IMG/VR virus record: IMGVR_UViG_3300020594_000001
Location: 45,600-109,599 of that record
DNA from: a virus
Taxonomy: Duplodnaviria; Heunggongvirae; Uroviricota; Caudoviricetes
Strand: one strand, 5' to 3'
Length of the DNA stretch: 64,000 nt
Below the pieces are notes generated by a model. It had not been told where the DNA came from, made no database searches, and was given only the letters and a program-made list of their open reading frames with translations. How positions within the stretch are numbered: position 1 is the stretch's first letter; each line of letters opens with the position of its first letter. This document shows, piece after piece, positions 1-19,168 of the stretch. The position numbers and the translations under genes were made by a program.

Positions 1-116
1 GCGCAGGTTCAACGATTGCAGCGCGGTGCATGGTAAGAGTAGGGCTTTTGATTTGAAGCGCGGTAGCGCTCGATTTAGCGATTGCAGCGCTGAAATTGAA
101 GTTAAGCTTTTGCATG
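1..116 (-). CDS. hypothetical protein; only the N-terminal 38 codons are in the window
   Basis: ATG at 114..116 follows the conserved AGGTAAACATC leader. The N-terminus MQKLNFNFSAAIAK resembles the start of the 190..849 product, so the two may be paralogs. Confidence 0.4.
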
Positions 117-189
117 ATGTTTACCTTGTCGTTTTTGGTTTGTGTGTCGGGTTAGGTAGCGGGTTAGCTGCCCGCTACCTGATGCATGC

Positions 190-849
190 TTAGTTACCTG
201 CCCAGATATCGAACGTTGCATCGCTTGCGCTTTCGATCATGGCAATGAGCGCCCGTGTCGCGGGTGAATCGATAATTTCAGGGGTTTCGCCCTTGCGTGC
301 CATGGTTCCCGTGATACCCAGTGCGGGCAAGATACCGCCCTTGCTGTATGCCACGCTGATTTGCGTCGGGGCAGTTGCGGGGCTCATGTGTTCGCCCCCA
401 TTCAAAGCCCTAACCAGTGAAGTAGCGCGTTCAATAGCGGGCAAGTCATACCCGTTGCCCACAGCGGTTGAATGGGCTTTACGGGTAAGCCCTTGAAATA
501 TGCCCGCACGGTTTTTGGCATGGCACAGCGTGACTGCAAACGCCAGCAAAGCGCATTTAGCTGAGCCCTTAAGGTATGCAGCATCGCCCGACGTCATGAA
601 ACCGAGAAACTGCGACACGCGCAAAACCTTTTTAACGTTTGTGCTGGTTTCAATGTCTTTGGCAAGGGCGTCAAAATCGATGTTAAGGGCTTTTGCAGCG
701 TCGAATTGAGCGCCCGAGAAACCTTCGAGAACTTTGATACCGCGTTCGATATCTTGCTGCATGCCCTCAGCGTTGCGACGCACGTTATAAGCGGTGTTTG
801 CTTTGATCGCTGCGTTAATCAGGGTTTTTTGTGCTTTGATGTTTTGCAT
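190..849 (-). CDS. hypothetical protein, 219 aa (start trimmed to MQNIKAQ)
   Basis: ORF track 190..933. The internal ATG at 849 is directly preceded by the conserved leader AAAGGTAAACACC. Confidence 0.5.
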   Translation of the reverse strand: MQNIKAQKTLINAAIKANTAYNVRRNAEGMQQDIERGIKVLEGFSGAQFDAAKALNIDFDALAKDIETSTNVKKVLRVSQFLGFMTSGDAAYLKGSAKCALLAFAVTLCHAKNRAGIFQGLTRKAHSTAVGNGYDLPAIERATSLVRALNGGEHMSPATAPTQISVAYSKGGILPALGITGTMARKGETPEIIDSPATRALIAMIESASDATFDIWAGN

Positions 850-912
850 GGTGTTTACCTTTGTGTGTAGTGGTTTGTGTGCTGGCTTTGTTTTGAGCCA
901 GTAATGACATTT

Positions 913-947
913 TAATGCAAACGTTTTTTTCAATGCAAACGTTTTTT
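913..947. repeat. tandem direct repeat 2 x AATGCAAACGTTTTTTT upstream of the 849 gene start
   Basis: Two adjacent 17-18 nt copies are visible in the sequence. Each contains the self-complementary core AAACGTTT. Confidence 0.6.
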
Positions 948-1145
948 TAGTGTTTTAACGAAAAAACTTCAAATCTAGGGGTTTTCACTGATACCGGGGC
1001 GCTTTGCTTGCCCGGGCATGCTTGACCCTACGGGGCGCGGTCAGGACGCGCTTTCCCGCCCCGCTGAGCGGTCTAGGATGGGCTCGCCCCGGTGCGGCCC
1101 GGTCGGGCGTGGCGGGGTGCTGCGCCTAAACCGATGACCAGGGTT

Positions 1146-1207
1146 GTCGCCGAACATGCTGACCAGCGAAATGGCCGAATACGTGACCGTTTGGCGAGCC
1201 GAACACA
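1146..1207. repeat. cluster A of GCCGAACA(C/T)(G/A) repeats, 3 copies
   Basis: GCCGAACATG (1149), GCCGAATACG (1174) and GCCGAACACA (1198) match a second cluster at 3279..3377. Confidence 0.55.
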
Positions 1208-1587
1208 AAATGCATTTGGGATCAGGTCGGCGCTAGGCTCATCAACTCGTGGGATAAAAAATAGGCCCGTCAGCGCTTCAGAACTTCAAAGCGCTTCGGG
1301 GCCATAAGGAGGCTCACATCATGCCAATGTGATCGGACAGACATCTTCATTCGGGGGGCAGTTTCTCTTCATGCCCCAGGAAGTTGGAGTCTTCAGCACT
1401 TACCGCTTGCGCCCTTCGCGTTTTGGGTCAGTAGCGCGGGGCAAGCAGCGAATCGAAGAAACCGAAGTATGTGCGCCCGGGGCAGGATGCGCCCTTTCCC
1501 GCCCGTGGCTGCGTTTAAATGGGTCGGTCCATACCCTCATGACCCTGGAGGGTCTAAAACGCGTGGCGGGCGGGGAAAATGCAGGGC

Positions 1588-1707
1588 CTAGCGAAGTTGG
1601 CGAGCGATGCGTTTGTTGTAGGCACGCTCGCGCAGCAACCGCTGCGATCGGATCATCGTCACCTCAGCGTGCTCTTGCATAATTTCGAATCGTTCAATGG
1701 TCGTCAT
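1588..1707 (-). CDS. small hypothetical protein, 39 aa (MTTIERFEIMQEHAEV...)
   Basis: ATG at 1705..1707 is preceded by a GGAAG Shine-Dalgarno. It falls below the 60-aa ORF-track cutoff. Confidence 0.35.
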   Translation of the reverse strand: MTTIERFEIMQEHAEVTMIRSQRLLRERAYNKRIARQLR

Positions 1708-2233
1708 GGTGGGCTTCCTTTCACTTTGGAGTGAGTCATAAAAATTGAAGCTTGAGTGTCAGTTGTTACGGTAGGCACGCCAAACCCCTGTCAACCCCCG
1801 GGGTGGTGCTAGGTCGGTTTGCCTGAACCTGATCGACCGCAACCTCTTCGCTTTGCTGACCCTTGAAAGACCCTAAGACAAAAGACCCCTCGGGCGCGCG
1901 TGCGCGTTATATATATAAAGGAACTTATTTTTAAGAATTAGAAAGTTGTATATATAGAGGGGAAGCCAAAATCGTGCTAAGTCTGAATTTAGAACGCCTA
2001 CAACTTAGAAAATAATGCTGCGGCACAACGACTTACGTTAATTTTTACTAAGAAAGGAGGCGCGGCAAAGGAGCGCCGCTCTTAACCCTTTAAAAGCACT
2101 AAGGATGAAGCCTGCGGGAGTGAAACTGAGTGCGGCTTTTTCTTTTAAAGCACTAAGAGTTGCTTTTCTGGTCCTAAAGGCGGTCCTAAGCTCGCGGGAA
2201 AAGAAAAGCCCCTTTTCAGAGGCTTAGTTCTTT

Positions 2234-2470
2234 TTAATTGGTAAGGAGCTCGTCTGTCACCAACACCAAGTCCATCCAAGGACGCGTTGCGTCAGACTTG
2301 ACCATGAGTTGGTAGTCGAGTTGTTTACCGTCCTGGTAAAACTGGGTGAAATCGTGGTGGTCATCCGCTTCGATGGTGATGATGCGCCCATTGGGTAATT
2401 CCACTCGCAGGTTGTCGCCGGTCTGCATTTTGAGGGTGGTGGTGCCGTTGTTGTGTTCGAAGTAGCGCAT
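2234..2470 (-). CDS. hypothetical protein, 78 aa
   Basis: ATG at 2468..2470 with GGAGA Shine-Dalgarno; start trimmed from ORF 2234..2650. Confidence 0.45.
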   Translation of the reverse strand: MRYFEHNNGTTTLKMQTGDNLRVELPNGRIITIEADDHHDFTQFYQDGKQLDYQLMVKSDATRPWMDLVLVTDELLTN

Positions 2471-2481
2471 GATTGTTCTCC

Positions 2482-2583
2482 TTACCAGGGTTTGCCATGA
2501 ACCAGGGCGTGCAAAAGGATCGTCCCGCACGTCATGACTGCGATGCCGATAACGGTGAAGGCAATCAGTTTCAGGTTTTGCAT
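2482..2583 (-). CDS. small hydrophobic membrane peptide, 33 aa (MQNLKLIAFTVIGIAVMTCGTILLHALVHGKPW)
   Basis: ATG at 2581..2583. The product is a single predicted transmembrane helix. It lies between two minus-strand genes. Confidence 0.4.
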   Translation of the reverse strand: MQNLKLIAFTVIGIAVMTCGTILLHALVHGKPW

Positions 2584-2906
2584 GAGGCCACCCCTTGGTG
2601 AAAAGGCATCGGGGCGATAAACCCAATCTGGAACCCCACCCGCTCAGCATGCGTTAACGCAGCCCACTGCTGCGGACTCATCTGGAACGCTTCGCAAATT
2701 GCATCGACCAGATCAGCGTCACCCAACAACCGCCCGAACTCCAGGCAGATCAAATCACCCTCCACCAGCTTGCTGGGCCAGTAATCGTGCTTACGATCAA
2801 ATGCTAGGAGCTCTTCAACCGCTCGGTCATACGCGGGGTTGTTCAAGTCATAGTCTTTGGTGAAGGCGAGAACCCTCTGCGCGATCACCTTTCGTTGTGC
2901 TTGCAT
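2571..2906 (-). CDS. hypothetical protein, 111 aa
   Basis: Start at 2906 is preceded by the conserved leader ...CACACAAGGTAAACATCATG. Confidence 0.55.
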   Translation of the reverse strand: MQAQRKVIAQRVLAFTKDYDLNNPAYDRAVEELLAFDRKHDYWPSKLVEGDLICLEFGRLLGDADLVDAICEAFQMSPQQWAALTHAERVGFQIGFIAPMPFHQGVASCKT

Positions 2907-2966
2907 GATGTTTACCTTGTGTGCTGTCGTTATGAGGTGTCATCATGAGCGCCCAAAAGAGGCACT

Positions 2967-3097
2967 TTTCCCACTTTCGTTTCTTTACCCCCGGTTTTTC
3001 GGATACTTTTCTAAAAAATTTCCCACTTGAAGCGCCTAAATCCGATAGATATTGGGCGATCTTTCCCACTTTGCTAGGCGCGCAAAACCCACTTTTG
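2967..3097. repeat. four direct iteron-like repeats TTTCCCACTT(T/G)
   Basis: Copies at 2967, 3018, 3062 and 3086 lie inside a 1.1-kb non-coding region. Confidence 0.6.
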
Positions 3098-3278
3098 GGG
3101 CTAAAACGGGGTTTTCGGGGTGTAGGCGGGTCAAACCGAGGGGGGTTCGATTGCCTAAAGAGGGAGATAGGCCCGAGCACCAGGACAGGACGCCCAGCCC
3201 GTTAGGCAGTCTCTGGCGGTTGATACGCCTACACCTCTATACACGCGCAAAGGGGGCCTAATCGCTTACCAGGGATCT

Positions 3279-3377
3279 GGCCGAACACGTAGGCTGGGGG
3301 TGAGCCGAACATGAAAAAGGCTTATGGGCATTGGGGAAGGCGAGCCTTTCTATATACGGAAAGCTGGCCGAACACGA
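3279..3377. repeat. cluster B of GCCGAACA(C/T)G repeats, 3 copies
   Basis: GGCCGAACACG (3279), GAGCCGAACATG (3302) and GGCCGAACACG (3367). Confidence 0.55.
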
Positions 3378-4000
3378 AAGGAACTGGGCGCTAGGACGGC
3401 TTAGGCACGTTGACGTTTAAAGGCTTAGGAAGCGGAAAAATCTCTTATACGTCCGGTTATTGTTGTCATACGTCTGGTCCTATATCCGGTTATGTGGTTG
3501 CTTGTATATTCGGTTTATATGGTGTGTTTAAGCATCCTCTGTTTGTGTTGTTGATGAACCTCTCTATGGATTCCTTTCTCTATTCATTAACCGTCTCTTC
3601 TTTCTATCTGTTGTAGCTGTCGATATTGTTGTTGCTGGTCTTATCCGCACACTTTCTCTTTTCGTCATACGTTCTTTTTGGATTCGAGCTCGCCTGGTCA
3701 GTCTCTGTCTTCTCTTTCCCTCACGTCGAAATAGATTCGTTTTGCTTTGGTTGCTTTGCTTGAATCGCGCTTGCTTGCGCTTTTGGCGATCGACCTATGC
3801 CAGGGTATCGGTTTTGCTGAAAATCGCTTGTAGCGCGTTTAATCGGTTCTCTCGATACAATCGCGGGCGAAATTGCGGGGTTGCCTATGCTTGAAAAACC
3901 CCTTTAAAATCAATAGCTTACAATACGAGATTAACCCTTGCAAAAAAGACCCTTAAAATCAATGGGTTACGAGGGGTTTTCCTATAGGCTTTGCGGGCAT

Positions 4001-4030
4001 AAAAAAGACCCCACCTGTGAGGGGGTGGGG
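4001..4030 (-). terminator. rho-independent terminator for minus-strand transcription
   Basis: On the minus strand the hairpin CCCCACCC..GGGTGGGG is followed by TCTTTTTTAT. It closes the tmRNA-containing transcription unit. Confidence 0.6.
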
Positions 4031-4227
4031 CCGTGAAGAGTCTGTTTCCAGACTTAGGTAAACACCGATGCAAAGCGGTGTCTGGGTGAGGATAGCACAG
4101 CAGCTTTCGCTATAGGCTGATGGTTGCGCAAGGGCCTAGGGTTCCCTTCCGTTGTTCGGTCCCGCATAGTAGCCCGGGCGGGTTTGCAGCCCTTTGTCCC
4201 GGCGTTGCTTTCTGCTAAGAGGCAACC

Positions 4228-4314
4228 ATCATGTCTGCCAACGAGAAGGAATCGAACCTTCGCCTTCGACCTCGCGAGTCGTTGCTCTACCAAACGCGCA
4301 TCGTTGGCAGACAT
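4228..4314 (-). other. tRNA-like element, a degenerate cloverleaf with anticodon GCG (Arg-like), enclosed in a 16-bp inverted repeat
   Basis: On the minus strand: acceptor GCCAACG/CGTTGGC, D-arm GCGC-GTTTGGTA-GAGC, anticodon loop TCGCGAG, T-arm GAAGG-TTCGATT-CCTTC. Defects are C at position 33, one extra nt before the 3' acceptor strand, and no encoded CCA. The stem is extended by ATCATGTCT/AGACATGAT. Confidence 0.4.
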
Positions 4315-4595
4315 GATGATCCTGGTCTTTCTCTTCGCCAGGGCAGAAGCTGATGGTGTCGCACGCTCTACATCAGGGAGGGCCTACGCCATCACCCGGT
4401 ATCGGTCCAACCGCCAGCGGTCGGTGCGAAACTCCGTCAGGTTTTCACCTTCACCATCATGAAAAAGAGCGGTCCTCACCCTTGCACGTCTGGCGCACGT
4501 CCGGCCTTTCGTAATACTCGCCAGCAGGGTTGATACGGTTTTGAACGGGCCGCGCTCTTTCATGATGGCCCCGGGCATTCCCGGGGAACCTTTAC

Positions 4596-4925
4596 TTAGC
4601 AGTATTGTTCCTCTAATTCTTCAGCGAGTTTGGTTGCGCCTTCCAGCAGCGGTTCAAGCGAAACGTGATAATCAGCGATGACGTCGAAGCCGTCGTTGCC
4701 GTAAACGAGATAGACGGTAGCGCCGGGGTCTTTGTCATCTTGGTGGACGATCAAGGTGTCCTCGCAGGTGAGTCCGATGGCCGCCATAATGTCAGCGACA
4801 TTGCGTGAACGCTTGAGCGCGTATGCCTCGCCATCAAAGACCGATATGCTACGACCCGCAGCGATGACGTCTTGGGCGAGTTTTCGAACGATCTTGCGCT
4901 CGATTTGTTCGGTAGTCGGTGACAT
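4596..4925 (-). CDS. hypothetical protein, 109 aa
   Basis: ATG at 4923..4925; trimmed from ORF 4596..5111. Confidence 0.45.
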   Translation of the reverse strand: MSPTTEQIERKIVRKLAQDVIAAGRSISVFDGEAYALKRSRNVADIMAAIGLTCEDTLIVHQDDKDPGATVYLVYGNDGFDVIADYHVSLEPLLEGATKLAEELEEQYC

Positions 4926-4959
4926 GATTGTTTGCCCGTTGTTTGTTGATATGGCTCTA

Positions 4960-5220
4960 TCATGCGCCCGCAGATGAGGATGCGACATCGCGCAACAGCG
5001 CCTTGAATTGCTCTTCAGACAGAGGCTCTCCCGACAGCTCGCCCGGCTCAATGGTTGAATCCATGTAAGACCATCCGTTCCACCAGTCAGCGACATACCA
5101 TTTCGTTCCATCGCCGGGAACCGACCTGTCTAGCTTCACGAGCTCGCCATGCACGTTGCGGAAGATCATGCCCTCTTCGAGCTCGTATCGGCGCTCATAC
5201 CAGTCAATTTCCTTGCTCAT
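4960..5220 (-). CDS. hypothetical protein, 86 aa
   Basis: A strong AGGGGGAA Shine-Dalgarno lies immediately 3' of the tmRNA coding piece. Confidence 0.5.
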   Translation of the reverse strand: MSKEIDWYERRYELEEGMIFRNVHGELVKLDRSVPGDGTKWYVADWWNGWSYMDSTIEPGELSGEPLSEEQFKALLRDVASSSAGA

Positions 5221-5221
5221 G

Positions 5222-5662
5222 TGCTTCCCCCTACGTTGCGCTTCAATGATGGCCCCCGGCTTCTGTTGCCACCTGCCGGGGAAGGCCGTTACCGCTTAAG
5301 CAGCGGCACGGATGTAGTCGTCGTTGGCGTCTACAAGTTTTGCTTGGTTTATACGGCTCCGCTTGCCGAGTAGTTCGATTCGCTTCAGTATGTCTGTCGA
5401 AACCATGTCAGCCCCATCAGGAATTCCCTCGCCACTTTCGTCGGAGCAACCCGACTACTTGCTTCACTCACCAGTCCGTCGTTATGCGCACTTACGATAG
5501 GACTCGTGGGCCGTCTTGCCCCTCTATGGGCAGTCACGGAGGGAATTCCTGGTGGAGCTGGCGGGAGTCGAACCCGCGTCCAGACACCATTCACTGCACG
5601 TCTCGCGCCCCCCTCCGGCTAGAGGAAGTCGCACACTACCATCATCGAAGCGGGCCGGGCTT
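5222..5662 (-). ncRNA. ssrA: circularly permuted two-piece tmRNA gene: acceptor piece about 5550..5662, intervening hairpin 5416..5547, coding piece about 5222..5415
   Basis: The minus strand reads ...GGACGCGGGTTCGACTCCCGCCAGCTCCACCA (T-arm, acceptor 3' strand, CCA), ending at 5550. The tRNA-like 5' end GGGGCTGACATGGTTTCGACAG starts at 5415, after the CCA. A tag frame GCC AAC GAC GAC TAC ATC CGT GCC GCT GCT TAA (ANDDYIRAAA) lies at 5296..5328. A 14-bp complement links the coding-piece 3' end to the acceptor-piece 5' end. Confidence 0.7.
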
Positions 5663-5966
5663 GATACCGGCTTGTGCGTTATTTTGTTTTCGGGGTGGCC
5701 TGCCCCTCAAGCTAAAGGCTCGTATGCCTACGACACCACTGCACACAGTCTCGCGTTTCCTTCAACGCCGCCGCTTCGATGATGGTCCTGGTGCTTGACG
5801 TTTTCACAAGAGGCGCACCAGGAATACCCCTTGCTATGCTTCGGTTACATGACGGTCTCCGGTTCGTTCATTGTTCACCTTAAAGTTGTGTTGTCAGTAT
5901 AGGTATTGTGCGCTTTAGGTCTCGGAACGAACGCTCTTTACAACCACGGTGATCTGATTCTTCACG

Positions 5967-6200
5967 TCAATACCCCTGTTCAAGTGCCCATGCCTCAATG
6001 GCGTCGATGGTTTGTTGATCGACCTTGTGCCATTCACCCCGGACGTTTTCCAGCCCGCCCTCTCCCATCAGCAGCTCCAGGCTCCCGGTGTATTCACCAT
6101 GAACACCCTTCTTGCTGATAAAGCAGGATGGCCCGAACTCTTCGTTGCCCGCCTCGAATTCGACGGTAAAACCGTCAATCACAGTTTTTGCGTCCTTCAT
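5967..6200 (-). CDS. hypothetical protein, 77 aa
   Basis: ATG at 6198..6200 with a GGGGGAAAG Shine-Dalgarno. Confidence 0.5.
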   Translation of the reverse strand: MKDAKTVIDGFTVEFEAGNEEFGPSCFISKKGVHGEYTGSLELLMGEGGLENVRGEWHKVDQQTIDAIEAWALEQGY

Positions 6201-6436
6201 TCACTTTCCCCCAGTGGCCCAACTAAGTCGGTGAACGGATCAACAAGATCGTCGAATCGTTCAGCAAAGTGAGGCTCATCGAAAAGCCCGCAGTAGAACG
6301 CGGTTTCGATCGCCTCGCGCAGCGCTCGCAGCGCCTGCTTTTGGGCTGGGTCAAGATCGCATTCAAATCCGCCACCATTGGGTTGCGACGATACGCTGAC
6401 ATACGTATCGTTTTCTTGGTCATATTGAAGCTGCAT
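6197..6436 (-). CDS. hypothetical acidic protein, 79 aa
   Basis: Start trimmed to MQLQYDQ, ATG at 6434..6436, preceded by the leader GGCACTATGCACATAACTACATCAAAACAGGTAAATACG. Confidence 0.5.
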   Translation of the reverse strand: MQLQYDQENDTYVSVSSQPNGGGFECDLDPAQKQALRALREAIETAFYCGLFDEPHFAERFDDLVDPFTDLVGPLGESE

Positions 6437-6508
6437 CGTATTTACCTGTTTTGATGTAGTTATGTGCATAGTGCCCGCGACAGTCAGGCGCGTTTTGTGC
6501 TAAAACAA

Positions 6509-6536: not shown

Positions 6537-6839
6537 ATGCCCAGATGCACTCTACAAACCTCCCACTCGTTCGGCCAACCCCGCATAGCGTGGTCTGCCC
6601 CGGTCGAGGTGCCTATCAAGCTGTCGACGCGAGAGCACGATAGGCTCAAGCGCGTCGTGTCATACCTGCATGTTCCCTACCAGGGCGACGGCAACCTAGA
6701 CGCCAGCCAGAAAATCGCTGCGCTGTATGAGCCTTACGTGCTTGCGTTCAACTCTGACAAAAGCATCGTCTTTGGTGGGTTCGAGGAAATCACCGGCTCA
6801 CGCTTCTACCAAAGCTGGCTTGTGAAATGGCTCGACTAG
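6537..6839 (+). CDS. hypothetical protein, 100 aa, plus-strand, probably SOS-regulated
   Basis: One of very few plus-strand genes. A LexA box overlaps its promoter and RBS region. Confidence 0.5.
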   Translation: MPRCTLQTSHSFGQPRIAWSAPVEVPIKLSTREHDRLKRVVSYLHVPYQGDGNLDASQKIAALYEPYVLAFNSDKSIVFGGFEEITGSRFYQSWLVKWLD

Positions 6840-7151: not shown

Positions 7152-7556
7152 TCAGTCCTCAAAAGAAAGCGTTTCAAGCATGGCGATACACTCTTTGTCA
7201 GGCCCGCCATTGGATGCGATGTAAGCGTCATACCTGGCTTGATCCATCCAGTCTGCCTTGTTTATGCCAGCCAAGAAGGACAGATAGCTCGTCATGTGTT
7301 TTGCCAGATCAGGCGTCTCAACTTCCCAATGCTTTAGGTCGTAAGTCCCTTTGTAGGTTTGGCCGTTCTCCCACTCGACGACAAAGTCGGTCTTGTCGTA
7401 GGCACCATTCTTGGGCGCAGTGCCAGACCAAGTTTGAAGCAATGCATTGGCCTGCTTGAAAGTCGGAACGGTCAAAGGCAGGGCATCGCTCTGGTAGGTA
7501 TAACCCTCTTTGTAGGTGAAGGTGATGGCCTTGACTTTGATTTTTTCTGTTTGCAT
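7152..7556 (-). CDS. hypothetical protein, 134 aa
   Basis: Start at 7556 is preceded by the leader GGGCTCACTATAGAACCATCACATAACAAAACAGGTAAACACGA. Confidence 0.55.
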   Translation of the reverse strand: MQTEKIKVKAITFTYKEGYTYQSDALPLTVPTFKQANALLQTWSGTAPKNGAYDKTDFVVEWENGQTYKGTYDLKHWEVETPDLAKHMTSYLSFLAGINKADWMDQARYDAYIASNGGPDKECIAMLETLSFED

Positions 7557-7587
7557 TCGTGTTTACCTGTTTTGTTATGTGATGGTT

Positions 7588-7800
7588 CTATAGTGAGCCC
7601 GCAACGTAGGCGTCGACATAGCGCTCGCCATCCCAGACCTGTAAGCGGCGCGGGTCAATTGGCTGCGACGCGCTTCGTTTTGCCTCTTTCAGCGCGTCGT
7701 CATGGCTTGATGCGCCGATCATGACCCATCCAAAACTGCCTCGGTAGCGGTAGCTGGTCAGTCCCGGCGATGCCATAGGTCTGTCAGTGTGAGCGGCCAC
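7588..7800 (-). CDS. hypothetical protein, 70 aa
   Basis: Minus-strand ORF in the operon array. Confidence 0.4.
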   Translation of the reverse strand: MAAHTDRPMASPGLTSYRYRGSFGWVMIGASSHDDALKEAKRSASQPIDPRRLQVWDGERYVDAYVAGSL

Positions 7801-8114: not shown

Positions 8115-8328
8115 GCTTCAATGGCGCTTGCATAGAATATGTGCCGTCGGGTCTAAGGTAAATTTCCAGCTTCGGATCGCCACCGTCAACGCTCAAGCAC
8201 AGTTCTACCGTCGCGTTCCCGGGCTCGCCATGTCGCACGAAATGATATGGCACCCCGAAGGCATCCATGGAATTTAGAATGTCGTTAAGACAGCCCTTAA
8301 TCTCAACCATCGGCGCTACTTTCATCAT
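8107..8328 (-). CDS. hypothetical protein, 73 aa
   Basis: Start trimmed to MMKVAPM; preceded by the leader GCGCACTATACAACCATCAACACAAGACAAGGGAG. Confidence 0.45.
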   Translation of the reverse strand: MMKVAPMVEIKGCLNDILNSMDAFGVPYHFVRHGEPGNATVELCLSVDGGDPKLEIYLRPDGTYSMQAPLKLA

Positions 8329-8669
8329 GAAACTCCCTTGTCTTGTGTTGATGGTTGTATAGTGCGCCCCAGCGCACGGCGCGCGCAGCAAAGCACTAAG
8401 TAGTCCAAATGAAAAGCCCGGGGTTCTCCCGGGCCTACCAGCTGTTCATAGATTCTTGGCGGGATGACGCTTCCGTCTCAGCAATCACCCCGATTCATCG
8501 GGGCCAGCGCCTTGGCGCAGCGTCTTGCGCAGTTCGGTCGCGCTGTGCTGTTCCATGCCGCTCGCAGACGGGCGCTGGCAAGGACAGACGAAGTGCGACG
8601 ACGATCACGAAAAGGATTGGTATCACTCGATTCCTTGGTGCAGAAGCGTGTCGTGAAGTGGTGCGGCCA

Positions 8670-9112: not shown

Positions 9113-9315
9113 GACTTCTCGCCCTTGACCACGTCCATGACATCGAAGATCAAACCGTTCTTGACTGCGGCAGAACCAGGGTTGTTCTCGCACAAGTTGA
9201 TGATGTAGGCAACGCCGCCCATGTCGGGAATTCTGGCGTTGTGGCAGAGGGTGTCGTAGATTCCGAGCTCTTTGGCACGCTTGATGATTCTGTCGATACG
9301 CTTAACTTTCTGCAT
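9109..9315 (-). CDS. hypothetical protein, 68 aa
   Basis: Start at 9315 is preceded by the leader ...GACAAGCAAGGTAAACATCATG. Confidence 0.5.
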   Translation of the reverse strand: MQKVKRIDRIIKRAKELGIYDTLCHNARIPDMGGVAYIINLCENNPGSAAVKNGLIFDVMDVVKGEKS

Positions 9316-9376
9316 GATGTTTACCTTGCTTGTCGTTCTTGATGGCTCCCATTGTGCTCACGGGAAACAGGCGTGC

Positions 9377-11673: not shown

Positions 11674-12171
11674 TCAGTGGAACTTGACGAAGCCGCCCTT
11701 ACTGGCGAGCAGGAACGCTTGCTTGAACGAGCGGTATGTGTCATGGAAGTATTCACTTTCTCGCAAACTGGCAGGCCCGTATGTAAGAAAGTCGTTGTGC
11801 AGCTTCGCACTGGTGTCGGGGCCGACTAGACCTTCGCAGTCGCTGAAGTTGATCAACTCCCAGAAAGGCCCACCATTCGCTTCCCACGCGCCCCTGTCAT
11901 GTCTGCCATTGCTCGGCGCTGGATAGCCTGCAATTCTGGCCAGATCGTTGCGCCAAGCGTTGTAGCCGCTATACGAGCCAGCGCGGAAGCGAGTCTTTTC
12001 GCAGTCATCGACAACCCTGTATGCGCCTGTCTTGATGCCATCAGATTGATTCGAAGATTCAGGCTTGTGGACGAACAGGAATATGAACCCGCCCTCGTCT
12101 TCCATTTCTTCGGAAACCTCTGGAGCAACAAATTCGCCTAACTTCGAGTGCGCAGTGATACTCAGCCCCAT
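11674..12171 (-). CDS. hypothetical protein, 165 aa
   Basis: Minus-strand ORF. Confidence 0.45.
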   Translation of the reverse strand: MGLSITAHSKLGEFVAPEVSEEMEDEGGFIFLFVHKPESSNQSDGIKTGAYRVVDDCEKTRFRAGSYSGYNAWRNDLARIAGYPAPSNGRHDRGAWEANGGPFWELINFSDCEGLVGPDTSAKLHNDFLTYGPASLRESEYFHDTYRSFKQAFLLASKGGFVKFH

Positions 12172-12660: not shown

Positions 12661-13190
12661 GCAGCCACCTCTTCGCCCCTGCGCAGCAGGTTTTCCAGAC
12701 CCTCTTTGACCTGCCGCGAAGTCATGCGAAAAATCGCACCATCAGGCAGTCGCGAAGCCATCCAGCCCCGCCTTGCCAGGTCACGGGTCAGTCGATAGCT
12801 GTGCGGGCCGTAGGGCACGACGAGACCTGCCTTTGCAGGGCTGTCTTTGAGCTTCCGCTTCCATTCGTGGTGGGCAATAACTCGCTTGCGCCATTCGGCA
12901 GACGAGTCGTTCTGTGCGGGGTGCGCCGCGTTCAGAAGTGACATCGGGCAGTCGTAGTAATGCGGGTGCGCGGTCTCGTTCACGCCTTTGTAGCCCCAGC
13001 CATGACGCCCGCCCGAGCTCATGAGACACAGCCCGATCAGGCGGGTGCCGTCAGGACGGCTGAAAAGCTGCCAGAGGTGGTTGCCGACTACAGAGTGCTT
13101 GATAAGCGTGTAGCCTGGTGAGAGCGAAGTGTTCAGATACGCGACAAGTTGCGCCTTTGTGCGCCATTCGCTGCAGAACGTGGTGCCCAT
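12657..13190 (-). CDS. hypothetical protein, 177 aa
   Basis: Start at 13190 is preceded by the leader GCGCATCATTACACCATCGATAACGACACAAGGTAAACATCATG. Confidence 0.55.
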   Translation of the reverse strand: MGTTFCSEWRTKAQLVAYLNTSLSPGYTLIKHSVVGNHLWQLFSRPDGTRLIGLCLMSSGGRHGWGYKGVNETAHPHYYDCPMSLLNAAHPAQNDSSAEWRKRVIAHHEWKRKLKDSPAKAGLVVPYGPHSYRLTRDLARRGWMASRLPDGAIFRMTSRQVKEGLENLLRRGEEVAA

Positions 13191-13195
13191 GATGT

Positions 13196-13465
13196 TTACC
13201 TTGTGTCGTTATCGATGGTGTAATGATGCGCGTTCGATGCAGGCGCTACTGGCCCAGCGAACGGCACCACCTTCTCGTTCAAGCGCTGCCACGCGATGCG
13301 AGCGTTGCCTATCGCGAGCACAGGCGGTATCACTACCGCTTTGAGCAATCGAATCCCCATGCTGTCCAGAACCTGTTCCATCGCCTCTTGCAGGGTGTTG
13401 CCCTGCACCTGCGCGACCCCACGGTCTTGGAATCCGAATAAATACGTGTTCATGACGCCCCTCAT
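13196..13465 (-). CDS. hypothetical protein, 89 aa
   Basis: Minus-strand ORF. Confidence 0.4.
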   Translation of the reverse strand: MRGVMNTYLFGFQDRGVAQVQGNTLQEAMEQVLDSMGIRLLKAVVIPPVLAIGNARIAWQRLNEKVVPFAGPVAPASNAHHYTIDNDTR

Positions 13466-14047: not shown

Positions 14048-14652
14048 TTTCGTGCGCCCCCTACAATAATGGCAAAGATTTGCTTTGCCTGTTCATAGTC
14101 TACCTCTGTTTCTATCCTGATCGTGTGGTTCGAATTCACTCGGGCATCCACGAATCTTCCGTCGCTATAGCAGTAGGCGGTGAACTCGTCGTTGTGACGC
14201 GTGCGGTGGACAAGCCCTGCATCGGTCAGAATGTCGCGCAGCCCTTCGGCAATGTCAGTTCTGGCCCGCGTGGCATTGTCGGTTTCCTCTACTGCCACTT
14301 CCATCGCCTGAAGCCATTCGAGGTAACCGGGCAGCAAACGCCGCTGAATGTCGCGGGCGATATGCTCAGGCTTCTTCTGAGCGGACACCTTGATTTCGCC
14401 ATTCAAGGTCAGGTGACTTTGCCCGCGCGGCAGAAAGTAGTTATTGAGCGCTTTTGTGTGCGCAAAACTGATGCCGAACTTGCCCTCCAGGCGGTATTGC
14501 CCAAAGCGCATCATGATGCCCGCCCACTTGTGCAGGCCGGGAAGCGCGATCACGCGATGCCCCCTTGACTCGGGGCCATAAAACTCGCTGACAGGCTGGG
14601 GCTCACCCCCGAGAATTTCCGCCACTTTTACGATTTTATCGTCGTAGTTCAT
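14044..14652 (-). CDS. hypothetical protein, 202 aa
   Basis: Start at 14652 is preceded by the leader ...ACACCATAGCAAATCTAGGTAAACAGCG. Confidence 0.5.
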   Translation of the reverse strand: MNYDDKIVKVAEILGGEPQPVSEFYGPESRGHRVIALPGLHKWAGIMMRFGQYRLEGKFGISFAHTKALNNYFLPRGQSHLTLNGEIKVSAQKKPEHIARDIQRRLLPGYLEWLQAMEVAVEETDNATRARTDIAEGLRDILTDAGLVHRTRHNDEFTAYCYSDGRFVDARVNSNHTIRIETEVDYEQAKQIFAIIVGGARK

Positions 14653-14658
14653 CGCTGT

Positions 14659-14949
14659 TTACCTAGATTTGCTATGGTGTATGCATTGTGTTCGACCCTT
14701 GACGGCACAAATCACGTCATGAAGATCAGCTTCCTTACCATCGTCTTCAAGGCCAATAAGTTCAATAAAAACGTCAAACGCCTGTTCATTGGTAAGTTCA
14801 ACATCTGTGTAGAAATACATGCCGAAGTCTTCGATCGGAATTCCGGGGTCATCGCCAACAGGGTCGACCCAGCCGTCTTCAGTAATTTCGGCCCAGCGAC
14901 AATGTGGTCTTATGCTGTTGTGCCCCATAGCCCAAAGAAACTTTTTCAC
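14659..14949 (-). CDS. hypothetical protein, 96 aa
   Basis: Minus-strand ORF. Confidence 0.4.
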   Translation of the reverse strand: MKKFLWAMGHNSIRPHCRWAEITEDGWVDPVGDDPGIPIEDFGMYFYTDVELTNEQAFDVFIELIGLEDDGKEADLHDVICAVKGRTQCIHHSKSR

Positions 14950-15580: not shown

Positions 15581-15753
15581 CAGCGGTATGCACGAATTAG
15601 CGGGCCTGATATGGATAGATCCCTCACTGCCGCAGCCAGGATTACTTCTTGGTCAGCACGCGACTGCAAAATGAAGTGCGCAAGTAGCCTGCGCTCATGC
15701 GATGTAAGCATTGTGTTTACCTGTTTCGTTGTTGATACCTGTATGGTGCGCGC

Positions 15754-16011
15754 TCAGGTGCGGCGCTCATAAAGCATCTTCCAGACGCGACCTTGCACAG
15801 CCTTAATATCCCGTTGTGCCCGCTCCAGGTCTTCCGTAAGTGCCATCAACTCCAAGTCTGTAGGCTTAACACCGGGCGTGGCAACCTTGCTTCCCACAGC
15901 CTCAAGCGAAGTCGCGACATAGACGCTCAGGAAATGCGCGAGCCTATCGAACTCGGCCTCAAGCGCCTTCCAGTCGTCGTCGTTCATGTCTTGCATTTCT
16001 TCAAGCGTCAA
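15754..16011 (-). CDS. hypothetical protein, 85 aa
   Basis: Minus-strand ORF. Confidence 0.4.
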   Translation of the reverse strand: MTLEEMQDMNDDDWKALEAEFDRLAHFLSVYVATSLEAVGSKVATPGVKPTDLELMALTEDLERAQRDIKAVQGRVWKMLYERRT

Positions 16012-16087
16012 AGCGGTCTCCTGTGCCAGGAAACCGCCCCTGGCGCGTTAAAATGGTGATGGGTATGCTTGGGTATGGGTAAGCCCG

Positions 16088-16444: not shown

Positions 16445-16453
16445 GTCGCGCCC

Positions 16454-16678
16454 TTAGCAAGCGTAGAACTCTGGAAGGCCGTAGCCGCGATCTTGCGAAA
16501 GCTTGTGTTCAGCCCATGATTGCAGGACGGGCATGGAGAAACTGCCGTCCAGGGCGCGAATTTCGATGACGTCGCGTCCTGCCCAGTCTTTGCTGGGTGG
16601 CATTGCGACCGCATCGAGCTCACCACGCACGGTGACAAGGATGCAGCGACGCGCGGGGTCAATTTGTTGTGTTTGCAT
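16454..16678 (-). CDS. hypothetical protein, 74 aa
   Basis: Start at 16678 is preceded by the leader GGGCGCATCATAACCATACCGACATCAGAACAGGTAAACATCATG. Confidence 0.5.
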   Translation of the reverse strand: MQTQQIDPARRCILVTVRGELDAVAMPPSKDWAGRDVIEIRALDGSFSMPVLQSWAEHKLSQDRGYGLPEFYAC

Positions 16679-16741
16679 GATGTTTACCTGTTCTGATGTC
16701 GGTATGGTTATGATGCGCCCGTCGGTGAGGCGTTTTGCGCT

Positions 16742-16924
16742 TCAGAAAGCGTCCGGGTGGAATGCATCGGCAATCTGCTTACACATTTCGATCAACCGAT
16801 CGGCAGCACGGGCTTCTTCCTTGGACAGTTCTGCCAGATTGCCTTCGATGTTCTCAAGCTCGTCGCCACAGTCGCGCAACGCCGCGAGGGTGTTCTGGAA
16901 TCGGCAGTAGCTCATGTTCGCCAT
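16742..16924 (-). CDS. hypothetical protein, 60 aa
   Basis: Minus-strand ORF. Confidence 0.35.
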   Translation of the reverse strand: MANMSYCRFQNTLAALRDCGDELENIEGNLAELSKEEARAADRLIEMCKQIADAFHPDAF

Positions 16925-16935
16925 ATCTTTCTCCG

Positions 16936-17160
16936 TTAATTGGGGAGTTTGTCGAGCCAGCTTTCAAACCGGCCCCAAAGTTCGGGCCTGCGTTCGATGT
17001 TGCGGGCAAGCTCAGAGCGGGTGAGCCCGTCCTTCACGAGCTCTAAAAACAGCTCGGCCACACCAGCGACTTTTGCGTGCTCTTCGTAAAACATCTGCAT
17101 CTGGGTTTTCATGCTTCCTCGCTCCGAGCGCCGATTCGCTCCAGGTGCATGGCCTTGCAC
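16936..17160 (-). CDS. hypothetical protein, 74 aa
   Basis: Minus-strand ORF. Confidence 0.4.
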   Translation of the reverse strand: MQGHAPGANRRSERGSMKTQMQMFYEEHAKVAGVAELFLELVKDGLTRSELARNIERRPELWGRFESWLDKLPN

Positions 17161-17345
17161 TGGTCGCGATGAGCCTGGTAAAACTCCACGAGTGAGGGAT
17201 AAACCGGGCTGATTGCCTTGAGCTCTCCAGTTTTCTGCCAGTGCTCGGTATCAAACAGAAAGCAGCCTGTTTGGCCCGAGGTCACGTCGAGGCACTGAGT
17301 TGTGTAATTCGACACGCAGTATCCTGATTTCATGCGTAGCTCCAT
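17109..17345 (-). CDS. hypothetical protein, 78 aa
   Basis: Minus-strand ORF. Confidence 0.35.
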   Translation of the reverse strand: MELRMKSGYCVSNYTTQCLDVTSGQTGCFLFDTEHWQKTGELKAISPVYPSLVEFYQAHRDQCKAMHLERIGARSEEA

Positions 17346-17863
17346 GCACTAGGCTGAACCGCTTCGATCGCCGCTTTTTCCAGCGCCTGCAGCGCGACGA
17401 ATGCGTTCAGCGGGTGGTTTGTGTAGGGCAGAGCCTCAGTAATGCTTCCTGAAAACCCCCTGGCGAACCTCTCATTGATGAAGAAGTGCTTCACGCCCGC
17501 CGCTTCAAGAACCCGGATGGCATAGCGGGCGAATCCATTCGATTCGTCGACGTAGCCACCATCGCCGAGCTTCTTGTTGATCTTGCGCATGACTTTTACC
17601 GCCTGCTCCATTTCGCGCAGTGTCATCATGTCGCTGTGATTGCCCGACATGCCATGCCTGAACGCGTAGAGCTTTGGAGTCGCTTGGGTTTTGCAAACAC
17701 TATCGCCGCCACCTTGGCTGGTAATCTCCAGCTTGAGCCGGTCGAAATAGTCAGTCCCGAGATTGAAAACCCGCACATATACATGCGAGTATTCGCCCGA
17801 CTTCTCGCCCCAAATGTAGGCGTAGACATCTTTGTCTTGATCGAAATTGTCTGGCTTTTGCAT
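17330..17863 (-). CDS. hypothetical protein, 177 aa
   Basis: Start at 17863 is preceded by the leader ...CATTGATTACATAACGGGTAAACC. Confidence 0.5.
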   Translation of the reverse strand: MQKPDNFDQDKDVYAYIWGEKSGEYSHVYVRVFNLGTDYFDRLKLEITSQGGGDSVCKTQATPKLYAFRHGMSGNHSDMMTLREMEQAVKVMRKINKKLGDGGYVDESNGFARYAIRVLEAAGVKHFFINERFARGFSGSITEALPYTNHPLNAFVALQALEKAAIEAVQPSAWSYA

Positions 17864-17922
17864 GGTTTACCCGTTATGTAATCAATGACTCTATTGTGGG
17901 CGTTAGAATGCGGCGCGTGTCG

Positions 17923-18138
17923 TCATTCGCATTCGTCGCTCTGCGGGTTCGGATGGAGTCGCCCGCCCTGCCAAGCCTTTATCCAAGCTTTGACACGTCG
18001 GTAATCCTGCTCGCTGTAGCCCTGTTCCGCCATGACTTCTGCGACACGCGCCAGCCCTTGAACGAGCGGGCCGCGCTTGTTGCGCCACGCCCACCTGCGA
18101 AGCTGTCGCGCGTATTTGTAGGCGTCGTTCGCAGTCAT
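17923..18138 (-). CDS. hypothetical protein, 71 aa
   Basis: Start trimmed to MTANDAYKYA, ATG at 18136..18138. Confidence 0.35.
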   Translation of the reverse strand: MTANDAYKYARQLRRWAWRNKRGPLVQGLARVAEVMAEQGYSEQDYRRVKAWIKAWQGGRLHPNPQSDECE

Positions 18139-18140
18139 GC

Positions 18141-18371
18141 TCAACTGACGAAGCTCCAGCAAGTCCAGCCTTTGTCGTCGCTCATGACTTCGATTGTTTT
18201 GCCGACGTCGCGGTGGGTGAACTGGCAAGTTTTGTGGTTCTTACCGCCCCAGTGAGGCTTTCTGGTGTTGATGTCCTCTGTTGTGACTTCAAACCGCTGC
18301 ACGTAAATGTCATCGCAGCCGCCCCAAGCGTTGTTGCGCCTTGTAAGTTGCTTTTCAGTCAGTTTTCTCAT
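18141..18371 (-). CDS. hypothetical protein, 76 aa
   Basis: Minus-strand ORF. Confidence 0.4.
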   Translation of the reverse strand: MRKLTEKQLTRRNNAWGGCDDIYVQRFEVTTEDINTRKPHWGGKNHKTCQFTHRDVGKTIEVMSDDKGWTCWSFVS

Positions 18372-18553
18372 TTTTCACCCACTATCTTGATGCCCAGTTC
18401 CTTCGCAAGGGCAAGCGCTTGGCCCTTTGTGTTGCTCCACGGCTGAACCATATCCACGCAGTATTCGTCCACAATGCGCCACGCATTGACGAACCAGCCT
18501 CGCTTCATGTTGAAGCGCTCTTGGCGGTCTTTCTTGATGTATCCGACCTTCAT
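18368..18553 (-). CDS. hypothetical protein, 61 aa
   Basis: Start trimmed to MKVGYIKK. Confidence 0.35.
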   Translation of the reverse strand: MKVGYIKKDRQERFNMKRGWFVNAWRIVDEYCVDMVQPWSNTKGQALALAKELGIKIVGEK

Positions 18554-18765
18554 TACTCGCCCCCGTTGTATGCACGATTCATATAGGCATAGAAATACCT
18601 GGCCCGGGAGCCGTTCGCGTTCATGGGCTTGCGATACTTCCACTCGTCTGCAGCCGCGATGATGCGCTCGACCATCACAATGCCCAGCGTATGGAAGTCA
18701 GCGTTCAGGATGATGCGGTAGCGAGAGGCCAGATCGCTGGCTTGGCCCTTTGTCATGTGTGCCAT
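18553..18765 (-). CDS. hypothetical protein, 70 aa
   Basis: ATG at 18763..18765. The palindrome AATTGACTGATATGTCAATT (18781..18800) lies just upstream. Confidence 0.4.
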   Translation of the reverse strand: MAHMTKGQASDLASRYRIILNADFHTLGIVMVERIIAAADEWKYRKPMNANGSRARYFYAYMNRAYNGGE

Positions 18766-18774
18766 GGTTCGCCC

Positions 18775-19110
18775 TTACAGAATTGACTGATATGTCAATT
18801 GGACGCCCAGCGCGTCGGACAGGTCTTTGGTAATGGCGTGATGCGCATCAAACCCCAGGCCGTGATAGATCAAGGAATACCCACGCTCCCGGTTCGACAG
18901 CTTATGGCGGGTTGCTTTCGCAGCAGGCGCTGTAATCTCGACCAATTGGCGGTTGGCAGCGTCAAACAAAAACACGGCCAGATAGCGCGTGGTTCCTGGC
19001 GGACTGACCCACCGTGTCATGACATAGACGCGGCAAAACCCGTCGTATTGGGCGATCAGGTTTTTGATATCCTCTATCGCCCCTTCGCGGGCGCGGTCGG
19101 TCTGGCTCAT
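18775..19110 (-). CDS. hypothetical protein, 111 aa
   Basis: Start at 19110 is preceded by the leader GACGCGCACTATACACCTATTGAAAGCAAACCAATAGGTAAACCC. Confidence 0.5.
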   Translation of the reverse strand: MSQTDRAREGAIEDIKNLIAQYDGFCRVYVMTRWVSPPGTTRYLAVFLFDAANRQLVEITAPAAKATRHKLSNRERGYSLIYHGLGFDAHHAITKDLSDALGVQLTYQSIL

Positions 19111-19168
19111 GGGTTTACCTATTGGTTTGCTTTCAATAGGTGTATAGTGCGCGTCGAGCTACGGCGTG

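Follow-up and report, generated by a model that had tools for sequence, protein, structure and literature searches.

We analysed a stretch of 64,000 nucleotides (hereafter the window; positions 45,600 to 109,599 of the IMG/VR record IMGVR_UViG_3300020594_000001), which is part of a large phage genome and in which nearly all genes lie on the minus strand. Between 20 and 61 kb one finds a module devoted to replication, recombination and nucleotide metabolism, whose products include a DnaE-type polymerase, an exonuclease subunit, a single-stranded DNA-binding protein (SSB), UvsX/UvsY-like proteins, SbcCD, RuvC, ribonucleotide reductase (RNR), ThyA, RtcB and CobS/CobT; the right end of the window carries an integrase gene and a tRNA-Val gene. 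The left 20 kb are occupied by about 45 small genes essentially without family matches (ORFans). This text is about a promoter-leader unit that is repeated along this ORFan array. Fourteen such units lie between 2.9 and 20.1 kb and one more at 26.4 kb, and two further leaders (at 115 and 849) are devoid of promoter boxes. All of them point leftward. They follow each other at 0.8-1.5 kb, apart from two wider gaps (3.9 kb and 2.0 kb), and each stands before the first gene of a tightly packed run of open reading frames (ORFs), so that the units head operons of about 1 kb; often they overlap the last codons of the preceding ORF. Terminator-like hairpins are few in the array (an example is 8436-8414), and transcription should therefore add up along it.

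The repeated element is real and statistically strong. The first-pass annotation, made from the letters of the window, had listed thirteen leader sites; we found all of them on the minus strand, the only correction being that the start codon placed at 116 is the ATG at 115-113. The leader sequence AGGTAAAC has 12 matches where 0.92 +/- 0.87 are expected under dinucleotide shuffling, and none of 100 shuffles reaches 12; 11 of the 12 matches are on the minus strand, and 10 of those are followed, after 6-8 nt, by an ATG located no further right than 19.2 kb. When k-mers were counted without bias over the 60-nt upstream regions of 115 predicted genes, AGGTAAA(C) and CACTATA ranked first, above the maximum of 200 shuffles. 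CACTATA is found ten times on the minus strand and never on the plus strand. The box GCGCACTATA described by the annotation is indeed present, not as a stand-alone box: it is the downstream half of a bipartite motif, YGCC-N13-CAYNAT, which has 14 matches against 2.6 expected, 11 of the 14 being leader sites. CAynAT lies 35 to 41 nt from the ATG, where the annotation had given about 40 nt, and the spacer between Shine-Dalgarno sequence and start codon, which had been called fixed, runs from 5 to 8 nt (AGGT to ATG, mode 7). Nor is the same arrangement found at every listed site: the genes at 115 and 849 have the leader without the boxes and a hairpin upstream instead, while the gene at 8328 has the promoter and another Shine-Dalgarno sequence (AAGGGAG). 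Profile and matrix scans added four units to the list, at 4925, at 5871 (upstream of a tmRNA gene), at 20037 (degenerate) and at 26421.

Our alignment comprises 23 sites, of which the window contributes 12 and two relatives of this phage (L070 and L072, described below) the other 11; the C of CAynAT is numbered -12. The resulting consensus is bipartite, rCGCC-N13-CAynATa, with a G three bases before CA and a pyrimidine followed by an A exactly 7 nt after the T. The 13 nt between GCC and CA are kept in 23 of the 23 sites, that is in three phages. The information is concentrated in two blocks: 1.4-1.65 bits at G-28, C-27 and C-26, then 1.39 at G-15, 1.48 at C-12, 1.65 at A-11, 1.65 at A-8, 1.39 at T-7 and 1.07 at the +1 A, each of the positions -24 to -19 holding 0.00-0.22 bits. 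Within the hexamer, position 2 is an A (22 of 23 sites) and position 6 a T (21 of 23), the two middle positions vary (0.14 bits at position 4), and a C stands at -12 in place of T in 21 of 23 sites. The A preceded by C or T at exactly 7 nt after the T, which is the predicted +1, is present in 13 of 15 window units and in 19 of the 23 aligned sites. There is no information upstream of the GCC box; the bases that directly precede the -10-like box are rich in G and C. Region 2 of sigma-70-family proteins reads a conserved A at position 2 and a conserved T at position 6 of the -10 hexamer, and our reading of the motif rests on this established knowledge of -10 recognition. In promoters of this family the start is a purine 6-9 nt beyond the -10 element. 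Because of the A/T hexamer, the extended -10-like G, the rigid second box and the predicted purine start 7 nt downstream, the pattern is that of a promoter for a sigma-70-family protein. Since the promoter boxes lie 35-41 nt and AGGT 5-8 nt from the ATG, the promoter and the ribosome-binding region are two modules joined by a variable linker.

A position weight matrix (PWM) built from all 23 sites has 14 minus-strand matches above the shuffle maximum in the window, and no plus-strand match reaches 8 bits. In a leave-one-out procedure, 8 of 11 sites were recovered at E < 0.05. With a matrix built from the 11 sites of the relatives alone, window units take the first seven ranks, and each of the seven outscores every shuffle. 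The consensus TTGACA-17-TATAAT of sigma-70 occurs in the three parts of the window as often as by chance (11 matches against 11.0 expected, 8 against 9.0, 8 against 10.3), and in the three scans, which together cover the window, no match coincides with a unit; canonical sigma-70 promoters were thus not found at the units. We also rejected a reading of the plus strand, with the antisense TATAGT as -10: the GCC box would fall downstream of the start, no suitable -35 is available, and the units all run in the direction of the genes, whose ATGs are 35-41 nt away. The genes behind the leaders are not paralogous in an all-against-all BLASTP comparison, and the repeats are therefore not a by-product of gene duplication. 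No unit has a match in Rfam. Among the three readings that the first-pass annotation had offered (a dedicated promoter, an element for RNA processing or translational control, a recombination site for cassette shuffling), the dedicated promoter is the best supported: the two blocks have a fixed spacing, A at position 2 and T at position 6 are kept together with the pyrimidine-A step 7 nt downstream, the units are co-oriented with the genes and absent from the other strand, and they are conserved in two diverged relatives.

We describe the units from right to left; all are on the minus strand, and scores are those of the 23-site PWM unless stated otherwise. Unit 1 (19108..19168, 32.6 bits) is CGCC-N13-CACTAT with a +1 A predicted at 19137, a 5' untranslated region (UTR) of 27 nt and AGGTAAACCC-ATG; it heads the operon of a 111-residue ORFan and has an orthologous promoter in L070 (5642) and in L072 (1317). 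Unit 2 (17861..17917, 31.8 bits) is CGCC-N13-CACAAT with a 23-nt UTR and GGGTAAACC-ATG before a 177-residue ORFan, and its orthologs L070_6658 and L072_2915 have retained the CACAATA variant. Unit 3 (16676..16734, 24.3 bits; CGCC-N13-CATCAT, 25-nt UTR, AGGTAAACATC-ATG) precedes a 74-residue ORFan, and unit 4 (15709..15767, 31.3 bits; CGCC-N13-CACCAT, 25-nt UTR, AGGTAAACACA-ATG) an ORF of 49 residues; the -30 box of unit 4 lies inside the end of the upstream ORF, and its ortholog is L070_7262. Unit 5 (14650..14709) is weaker, at 18.1 bits, and was not recovered by leave-one-out; it reads TGCC-N13-CACAAT, with a 26-nt UTR and AGGTAAACAGCG-ATG before a 202-residue ORFan, and its ortholog L070_8785 is likewise TGCC/CACAAT. 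Unit 6 (13188..13247, 33.2 bits; CGCC-N13-CATCAT, 26-nt UTR, AAGGTAAACATC-ATG, 177-residue ORFan) is the top match of the relatives-only matrix. Unit 7 (9313..9375, 16.5 bits) has CGCC-N13-CACAAT, a 29-nt UTR and again AAGGTAAACATC-ATG, before a 68-residue ORFan.

Unit 8 (8326..8383, 32.9 bits; CGCC-N13-CACTAT, 24-nt UTR) is the one with a different Shine-Dalgarno sequence, AAGGGAGTTTC-ATG, and the terminator-like hairpin 8436-8414 lies directly upstream of it. Unit 9 (7554..7614, 32.4 bits) reads CGCC-N13-CACTAT-AGAACC-A, with a 27-nt UTR and AGGTAAACACGA-ATG before a 134-residue ORFan; unit 10 (6434..6492, 25.7 bits) reads CGCC-N13-CACTAT, with a 25-nt UTR and AGGTAAATACG-ATG before a 79-residue ORFan. 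Unit 11 (5869..5929, 17.9 bits; TTCC-N13-CACAAT, 27-nt UTR, AAGGTGAACA-ATG) opens a mini-ORF of 8 codons about 260 nt upstream of a permuted tmRNA gene (5296-5612) and, as a non-training match, scores above every shuffle. This two-piece tmRNA, on the minus strand, matches Rfam RF04321 with 106 bits, and ARAGORN gives the tag ANDDYIRAAA; in the segment 5239-5419 the identity to Bordetella phage PHB04 and to Achromobacter phage Axy11 is 88%, and elsewhere there is no relationship to these two phages. Unit 12 (4923..4983; ATCC-N13-CATGAT, 27-nt UTR, GGGCAAACAATC-ATG), also a non-training match, with an nhmmer E of 0.007, precedes a 109-residue protein of PHROG 4158, and unit 13 (2904..2966, 21.1 bits; TGCC-N13-CATGAT, 29-nt UTR, AAGGTAAACATC-ATG) a 111-residue ORFan. 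The degenerate unit (20035..20092; CGCC-N13-CAAACT, Shine-Dalgarno AGGGG), with 13.0 bits and 15.2 bits in the relatives-only matrix, fronts a conserved gene for 219 residues at the border of the ORFan array; the orthologous sites are intact, with CACAAT in L072 and CAGAAT in L070. The outlying unit (26419..26469; AGCC-N13-CACAAT, 17-nt UTR, AAGGGACACC-ATG, gene for 146 residues) has 19.5 bits as a non-training match and 19.6 with the relatives-only matrix.

The two leaders without promoter boxes complete the series, on the same strand. The first (847..901; repeats D2 and D11) consists of a hairpin CTGGCT..AGCCAG followed by CACACAAACCACTACACACAAAGGTAAACACC-ATG and a 219-residue ORFan. The second (113..179; repeat D2) has a 9-bp hairpin GGTAGCGGG..CCCGCTACC, then ..ACACACAAACC..ACAAGGTAAACATC-ATG; its gene, for 78 residues, runs off the window, and this second leader has 20 nt identical to the leader at 2901-2920. 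One can notice, just upstream of the leader of gene 849, two tandem copies of an 18-mer TTT(T/C)AATGCAAACGTTTT (910-945), which could be a binding site or part of another promoter (TTGCAT-N18-TAAAAT).

In the leader module, the 5'UTR that begins at the predicted +1 measures 17-29 nt and is made of 47% A, 25% C, 14% G and 13% T. The region -28 to +20 has a mean folding energy of -2.7 kcal/mol, and the mean is -7.0 in 97 other genes (Mann-Whitney p = 4e-7). AGGU forms the core of the Shine-Dalgarno sequence, commonly inside AGGUAAACAUC-AUG, in the arrangement AGGU-N5-8-AUG, whereas the genes internal to the operons have ordinary GGAG, AGGA or GAGG sites. The second codon is Gln (CAA or CAG) in 8 of 14 leader genes and in 4 of 97 others (Fisher p = 3e-6). 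The spacer AAACAUC between Shine-Dalgarno sequence and start codon is, like this second codon, conserved beyond what a Shine-Dalgarno sequence needs, and the segment AGGUAAACAUC-AUG-CAA is conserved across non-homologous genes and across phages of about 60% protein identity. Translational control beyond that of a good ribosome-binding region is possible.

With the border gene (19378-20037) as a query we obtained three metagenomic relatives: L070/L071 (64% identity, GC content 48%), L072 (63% identity, GC 55%) and L073 (55% identity), the contig of which stops at the border gene. Metagenomic data sets with relatives are ERZ27276850, ERZ23499817, SRR19631127, SRR29457800 and SRR11843831. L070 and L072 carry promoter-leader units of the form yGCC-N13-CAynATA-GAACCAT-, with an A/C-rich linker and AGG(T/G)AA..ATG. 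Scanned with the 23-site PWM, L070 has two non-training sites, at 12106 (27.1 bits) and 10175 (14.4 bits). CACAATA precedes the gene for 177 residues in all three phages, and CACTATACAyCTAwTGA follows the gene for 70 residues. Orthologous promoters keep their own variants and the spacers between their boxes diverge, a pattern of sequence which points to vertical inheritance under selection, not homogenisation.

The gene content of the relatives differs precisely at the units. In L072, the ortholog of the promoter and leader at 19149 stands directly before the ortholog of the window's second gene, the gene for 111 residues being absent, and two extra promoter-headed blocks of unrelated genes are found between shared anchor genes. 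In L070, the gene resembling that at 15711, with its promoter, lies directly ahead of the gene resembling that at 16678, which has kept AAGGGAAACATCATG and has no promoter. The proposal of a recombination site for cassette shuffling thus receives indirect support, as gene insertions and deletions and one reordering between relatives sit at units; protein identity of about 60% is too divergent for mapping breakpoints at the level of bases, and the units as a recombination substrate are suggestive only.

Other searches delimit this small group. A scan of IMG/VR with the motif pattern gave 65 single-copy matches in unrelated contigs and no multi-copy contig, as expected by chance; alignment of the border gene against IMG/VR and GTDB genomes gave nothing; and a concatenated query of 12 leader-gene proteins had no match at E <= 0.001 among the 8000 candidates collected, a list which the long query possibly filled. 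L068 and L069, relatives of the protein encoded at 4596-4925 (41% identity, GC 46-48%), were discarded as a different phage without the motif. Our search of the literature for a CACTATA-type promoter in DnaE/CobS/sigma phages found no description. By DnaE, identity to the nearest isolates is only about 40%; these are Rhizobium phage RHEph10-like phages, Pseudomonas phage nickie, Stenotrophomonas phages and SSU5-like phage-plasmids, and the relatives defined by DnaE are large siphoviruses or phage-plasmids. By megablast against phage records the window matches in the tmRNA segment only. A 100% identical phage is present in three public sequencing runs (SRR7142032, SRR7142031 and SRR7976231), and a 109.6-kb contig is listed in the cluster data.

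A candidate for reading the units is encoded in the window itself, at 56765..57448 on the minus strand. This gene, which the first-pass annotation had called a phage sigma factor, does encode a sigma-70-family protein (227 residues); its link to the units, proposed in the same place, is plausible. The protein passes the Pfam threshold for Sigma70_r2 with 31 bits, comes just below the cutoff of TIGR02937 (sigma70-ECF; 38 bits, residues 19-213) and has weak group-3 matches. The profile of its family matches regions 2-3 of SigA/RpoD in solved structures, and the AlphaFold (AF2) model has a pLDDT (predicted local distance difference test) of 89.5, all top Foldseek matches being, over the full length, sigma factors in holoenzyme complexes. 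The family counts 369 cluster representatives (E <= 1e-3) of about 200-230 residues, uncharacterised. Neither the protein nor its relative P0007 has a match among the proteins of 50,697 phage records, and the protein has no exact contig and no relative in IMG/VR. Its gene belongs to an operon CobT-CobS-sigma-DnaE and has no promoter unit of its own; it lies downstream of a pair of promoters at 60984-61029. This divergent pair, the best sigma-70-like promoters of the window (TTGGCA-16-TATAGT on the plus strand, TTGATA-16-TAAATT on the minus strand), is situated between the CobT operon and three plus-strand genes adjacent to the integrase, overlaps two copies of a palindrome described below, and resembles a lysogeny or early switch region.

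We consider it fairly probable that the units are a phage-specific promoter class, read by the phage's own sigma-70-family protein (56765-57448) and fused to a high-efficiency leader. The first module would be a bipartite promoter with r-C-G-C-C at -30 to -26, G at -15 and C-A-y-n-A-T at -12 to -7, followed by a 6-nt discriminator (often aGAACC) and initiation at Y(-1)A(+1). The second would be a 5'UTR of 17-29 nt, A/C-rich and essentially free of structure, with AGGU (often AGGUAAACAUC) 5-8 nt before the AUG and commonly CAA or CAG as the next codon. Host core RNA polymerase equipped with the phage sigma would read the promoter, and 14 co-oriented units about 1 kb apart would fire into successive short ORFan operons and into the tmRNA gene. 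The simplest cascade would have the host holoenzyme transcribe the replication operon, including the sigma gene, after which sigma would activate the ORFan array and the tmRNA; as the sigma gene lies in the replication operon without a unit of its own, the array would belong to a delayed (middle) class. The units are the only repeated sequence in this hyperplastic array, and may therefore act as boundaries, possibly as recombination points, for the gain, loss and reordering of cassettes.

Several points weigh against this interpretation. The start site and the promoter activity are deduced from sequence anatomy. Region 4 of sigma is detected by Pfam in none of 60 family members, region 2 alone being found, and the -30 box lies 13 bp from the -10-like box, where canonical sigma-70 spacing is about 17 bp, so that it is uncertain whether region 4 could recognise it. 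As a rule, such arrays of ORFans consist of early genes transcribed by the host holoenzyme, and one dependent on a phage sigma would be unusual. The one contig with an orthologous sigma (L066) covers replication genes only and has 0 units. As for the cassettes, units within the window are about 69% identical, against a baseline of 57% for random 60-mers, and the longest exact run shared among them is 20 nt, which makes them weak substrates for homologous recombination.

Among the alternatives a MotA-like arrangement, which we hold to be unlikely, comes first by some way. Here the host sigma-70 holoenzyme, or a host alternative sigma, would read the units, a phage activator at the GCGCC box (around -30) would replace -35 recognition, as MotA/AsiA do in T4, and the phage sigma would be left to other genes, such as late ones outside the window. 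With its end at -26, 13 bp from CAynAT, the box has the geometry of T4 middle promoters (PMC2988021); A-11 and T-7, which region 2 of any sigma-70-family protein reads, are kept in the -10-like box; and the conservation of the motif across phages of 48% and 55% GC fits a conserved host reader equally well as a phage one. Against this reading, 21 of 23 sites have C for the near-invariant T at -12, where T4 middle promoters require an excellent sigma-70 -10, and this phage has a dedicated sigma gene. No MotA/AsiA homologue was identified, no systematic search having been made.

A much smaller chance is left to a single-subunit RNA polymerase of the T7/SP6 type, encoded in the roughly 45 kb of genome outside the window and starting directly after CACTATA. 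The core CACTATAGAA of several units is the same as the SP6 promoter from -7 to +3 and as the T7 promoter from -7 to +1; it is found at 7595 in the window and at 6617 and 8748 in L070, with ATAGAACCAT at 1802, 2494 and 2876 in L072, and the strict strand specificity of CACTATA (ten against none) would suit such an enzyme. Promoters of this type nevertheless form one uninterrupted conserved stretch of about 20 bp, from -17 to +6, and start at the G directly after TATA. The units have bipartite information with the near-empty stretch from -24 to -19, their would-be -5 and -4 positions are the most variable, the GCC box would sit at -23 to -21, outside the T7-type span, and a G follows CAynATa in only 3 of the 12 aligned window units. 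Moreover, the window proteins scanned include no RNA polymerase gene (about 45 kb of the genome lie outside the window), and the DnaE-defined relatives are, as said above, large siphoviruses or phage-plasmids.

The least probable explanation, to which we give hardly any weight, is that the units are not promoters at all. They would lie in long read-through transcripts started far upstream and act at the level of RNA, for processing or as the binding site of a translational regulator, or else serve purely for recombination. The few terminators between units make read-through transcripts probable, the boxes are missing while the ribosome-binding region is kept in the leaders at 115 and 849 and in the L070 ortholog of 16678, so that the leader part can function alone, and the conserved AAACAUC spacer and second codon go in the same direction, but the rigid pair of boxes, its uninformative spacer, A-11/T-7 and the Y-A at +1 are features of DNA recognition, the distance from boxes to ATG varies, so that boxes and ribosome-binding region are not one RNA element, and the boxes often overlap upstream coding sequence. 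A hairpin formed by CGCC and the GGCG/GCG before CAynAT was rejected as well: the box region is no more structured than shuffled controls (RNAfold mean z = -0.47, not significant; mean minimum free energy -6.2 kcal/mol, against -5.7 in GC-matched controls) and the leader is unusually unstructured, which argues against the RNA-processing element of the first-pass annotation.

A doubtful refinement of the phage-sigma reading is that the segment AGGUAAACAUC-AUG-CAA might be the operator of a RegA-like repressor or RegB-like nuclease, added, in a lineage unrelated to T4, to mobile cassettes which resemble the promoter-early stem-loop (PeSL) elements discussed below and which would be built on a promoter for an uncharacterised phage sigma family (the one with 369 representatives). 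If true, the regulator of this operator could switch the entire ORFan array on or off as a block.

Further features of the window are recorded here. The CACTATA box is, as had been noted before, common to some copies of a palindromic motif, AGTAAGCrCTyACTATA. The 14-bp palindrome AGTAAGCGCTTACT, often followed by ATAa, occupies at least 14 intergenic sites of the replication module, ranging over 13.4-62.1 kb (e.g. 62088, 61035, 58742, 51964, 47110, 41948, 39608, 35352, 32960, 31110, 27325 and 13482). It overlaps the Shine-Dalgarno sequence or the start codon at some sites (47110, 32960), its imperfect copies produce CACTATA boxes at 27315 and 39598, and it looks like the operator of a dimeric DNA-binding regulator. 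Between integrase and tRNA-Val, a perfect palindrome with a 12-bp stem (63602-63632, ATGCACTTAGGG..CCCTAAGTGCAT) may be a bidirectional terminator or a feature of the attachment site. At the other end, the region 850-4600 has few confident gene predictions and a lower GC content (0.50-0.53). Dispersed repeats of 53 and 34 nt relate 1158-1231 to 3264-3400 at about 72% identity, TATATATA tracts rich in A and T lie near 1950-2010, and 4032-4007 and 2225-2206 are good terminators. ARAGORN missed a weak tRNA-like gene at 4237-4307, which Rfam scores as tRNA with 36.6 bits; an 18-nt inverted repeat without mismatch, CATCATGTCTGCCAACGA / TCGTTGGCAGACATGATG, flanks it (4227-4318), and a second inverted repeat nearby (4454-4568) has the end CCATCATG in common with the first. 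The left end of the ORFan array is a convergent intergenic region just past the left edge of the window; there, contig L076 carries at about 5900-6100 (some 0.3-0.7 kb past the window) five iteron-like direct repeats of ATCCTTATATTT, which may mark a replication or partition locus, in line with the kinship to phage-plasmids.

For uncultured large phages, the units provide a testable consensus, rCGCC-N13-CAynAT with a +1 A, and pair candidate promoters with a candidate divergent sigma lacking any characterised relative, a pair open to in vitro tests that require neither phage nor host. For about 45 small genes they settle where translation starts and where operons begin and end, and they place a phage tmRNA in the same regulon as the ORFan array. 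The unit of about 60 nt (promoter, unstructured A/C-rich leader and AGGU-N7-AUG) would be a possible orthogonal expression part if it is sigma-dependent.

Finally, the units can be compared with known systems. With T7/SP6 promoters and leaders of the gene 10 type they share the CACTATA(G) core, the strand specificity and the fusion of a promoter to a strong conserved leader; they differ in being bipartite, with an extra box beyond -20 and a start which is not at G. The host-takeover module of SPO1 lies in the terminal redundancy and is transcribed from early promoters of host sigma-A. It resembles the array by its two dozen or so small genes of unknown function, its many closely spaced strong promoters and its unusually good ribosome-binding sites.

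The middle promoters of T4 have a MotA box, (a/t)(a/t)(a/t)TGCTTtA, 12 +/- 1 bp from an excellent sigma-70 -10, and this box occupies -35 to -26 when it is 13 bp upstream of the -10 (PMC2988021). The likeness lies in a box near -30, 12-13 bp from the -10, which replaces the -35, and in genes which would be delayed-early; the box is here GCGCC (rCGCC) and not TGCTT, and the -10-like box starts with C and not with T. Phage sigma factors with promoters of their own are those of phage 7-11 (gp47, GTAAtg-N16-aCTA) and phiEco32 (gp36, tAATGTAtA), with a start 6-9 bp downstream of the -10-like box (PMC8948821). As in our case, a small divergent phage protein of the sigma-70 family goes with a phage-specific consensus unlike that of the host, a link which is here a probable one, and the motif was found by aligning the upstream regions of genes. 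The consensus is different, the spacing is 13 bp instead of 16 bp, the sigma is without detectable similarity to the proteins of the phage records searched, and it would serve an ORFan array and a tmRNA, not late structural genes.

The PeSLs of T4-like phages consist of a promoter of sigma-70 consensus, an AT-rich upstream region and always a stem-loop acting as terminator or attenuator (PMC2839356, PMC4122927). Like them, our units are repeated composites of about 60-100 bp ending in a Shine-Dalgarno sequence and a start codon; they are concentrated in a hyperplastic ORFan region, where they head ORFan cassettes (14 of 15 in the array at 2.9-20.1 kb), and they coincide with insertions, deletions and replacements, here also with a reordering, between related phages. 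Unlike PeSLs, they have a promoter which is not sigma-70-like, no AT-rich upstream region and no stem-loop, and they belong to a lineage of large DnaE-encoding phages and not of T4-like myoviruses. The idea of repeated promoter-leader units that organise, and maybe mobilise, ORFan cassettes is thereby extended beyond T4-like phages, to an organisation without stem-loop and without host-type promoter. The units are known in kind, as probable phage-sigma promoters and as PeSL-like regulatory cassettes; they are not a new category, and they are conserved in a small clade of uncultured phages.

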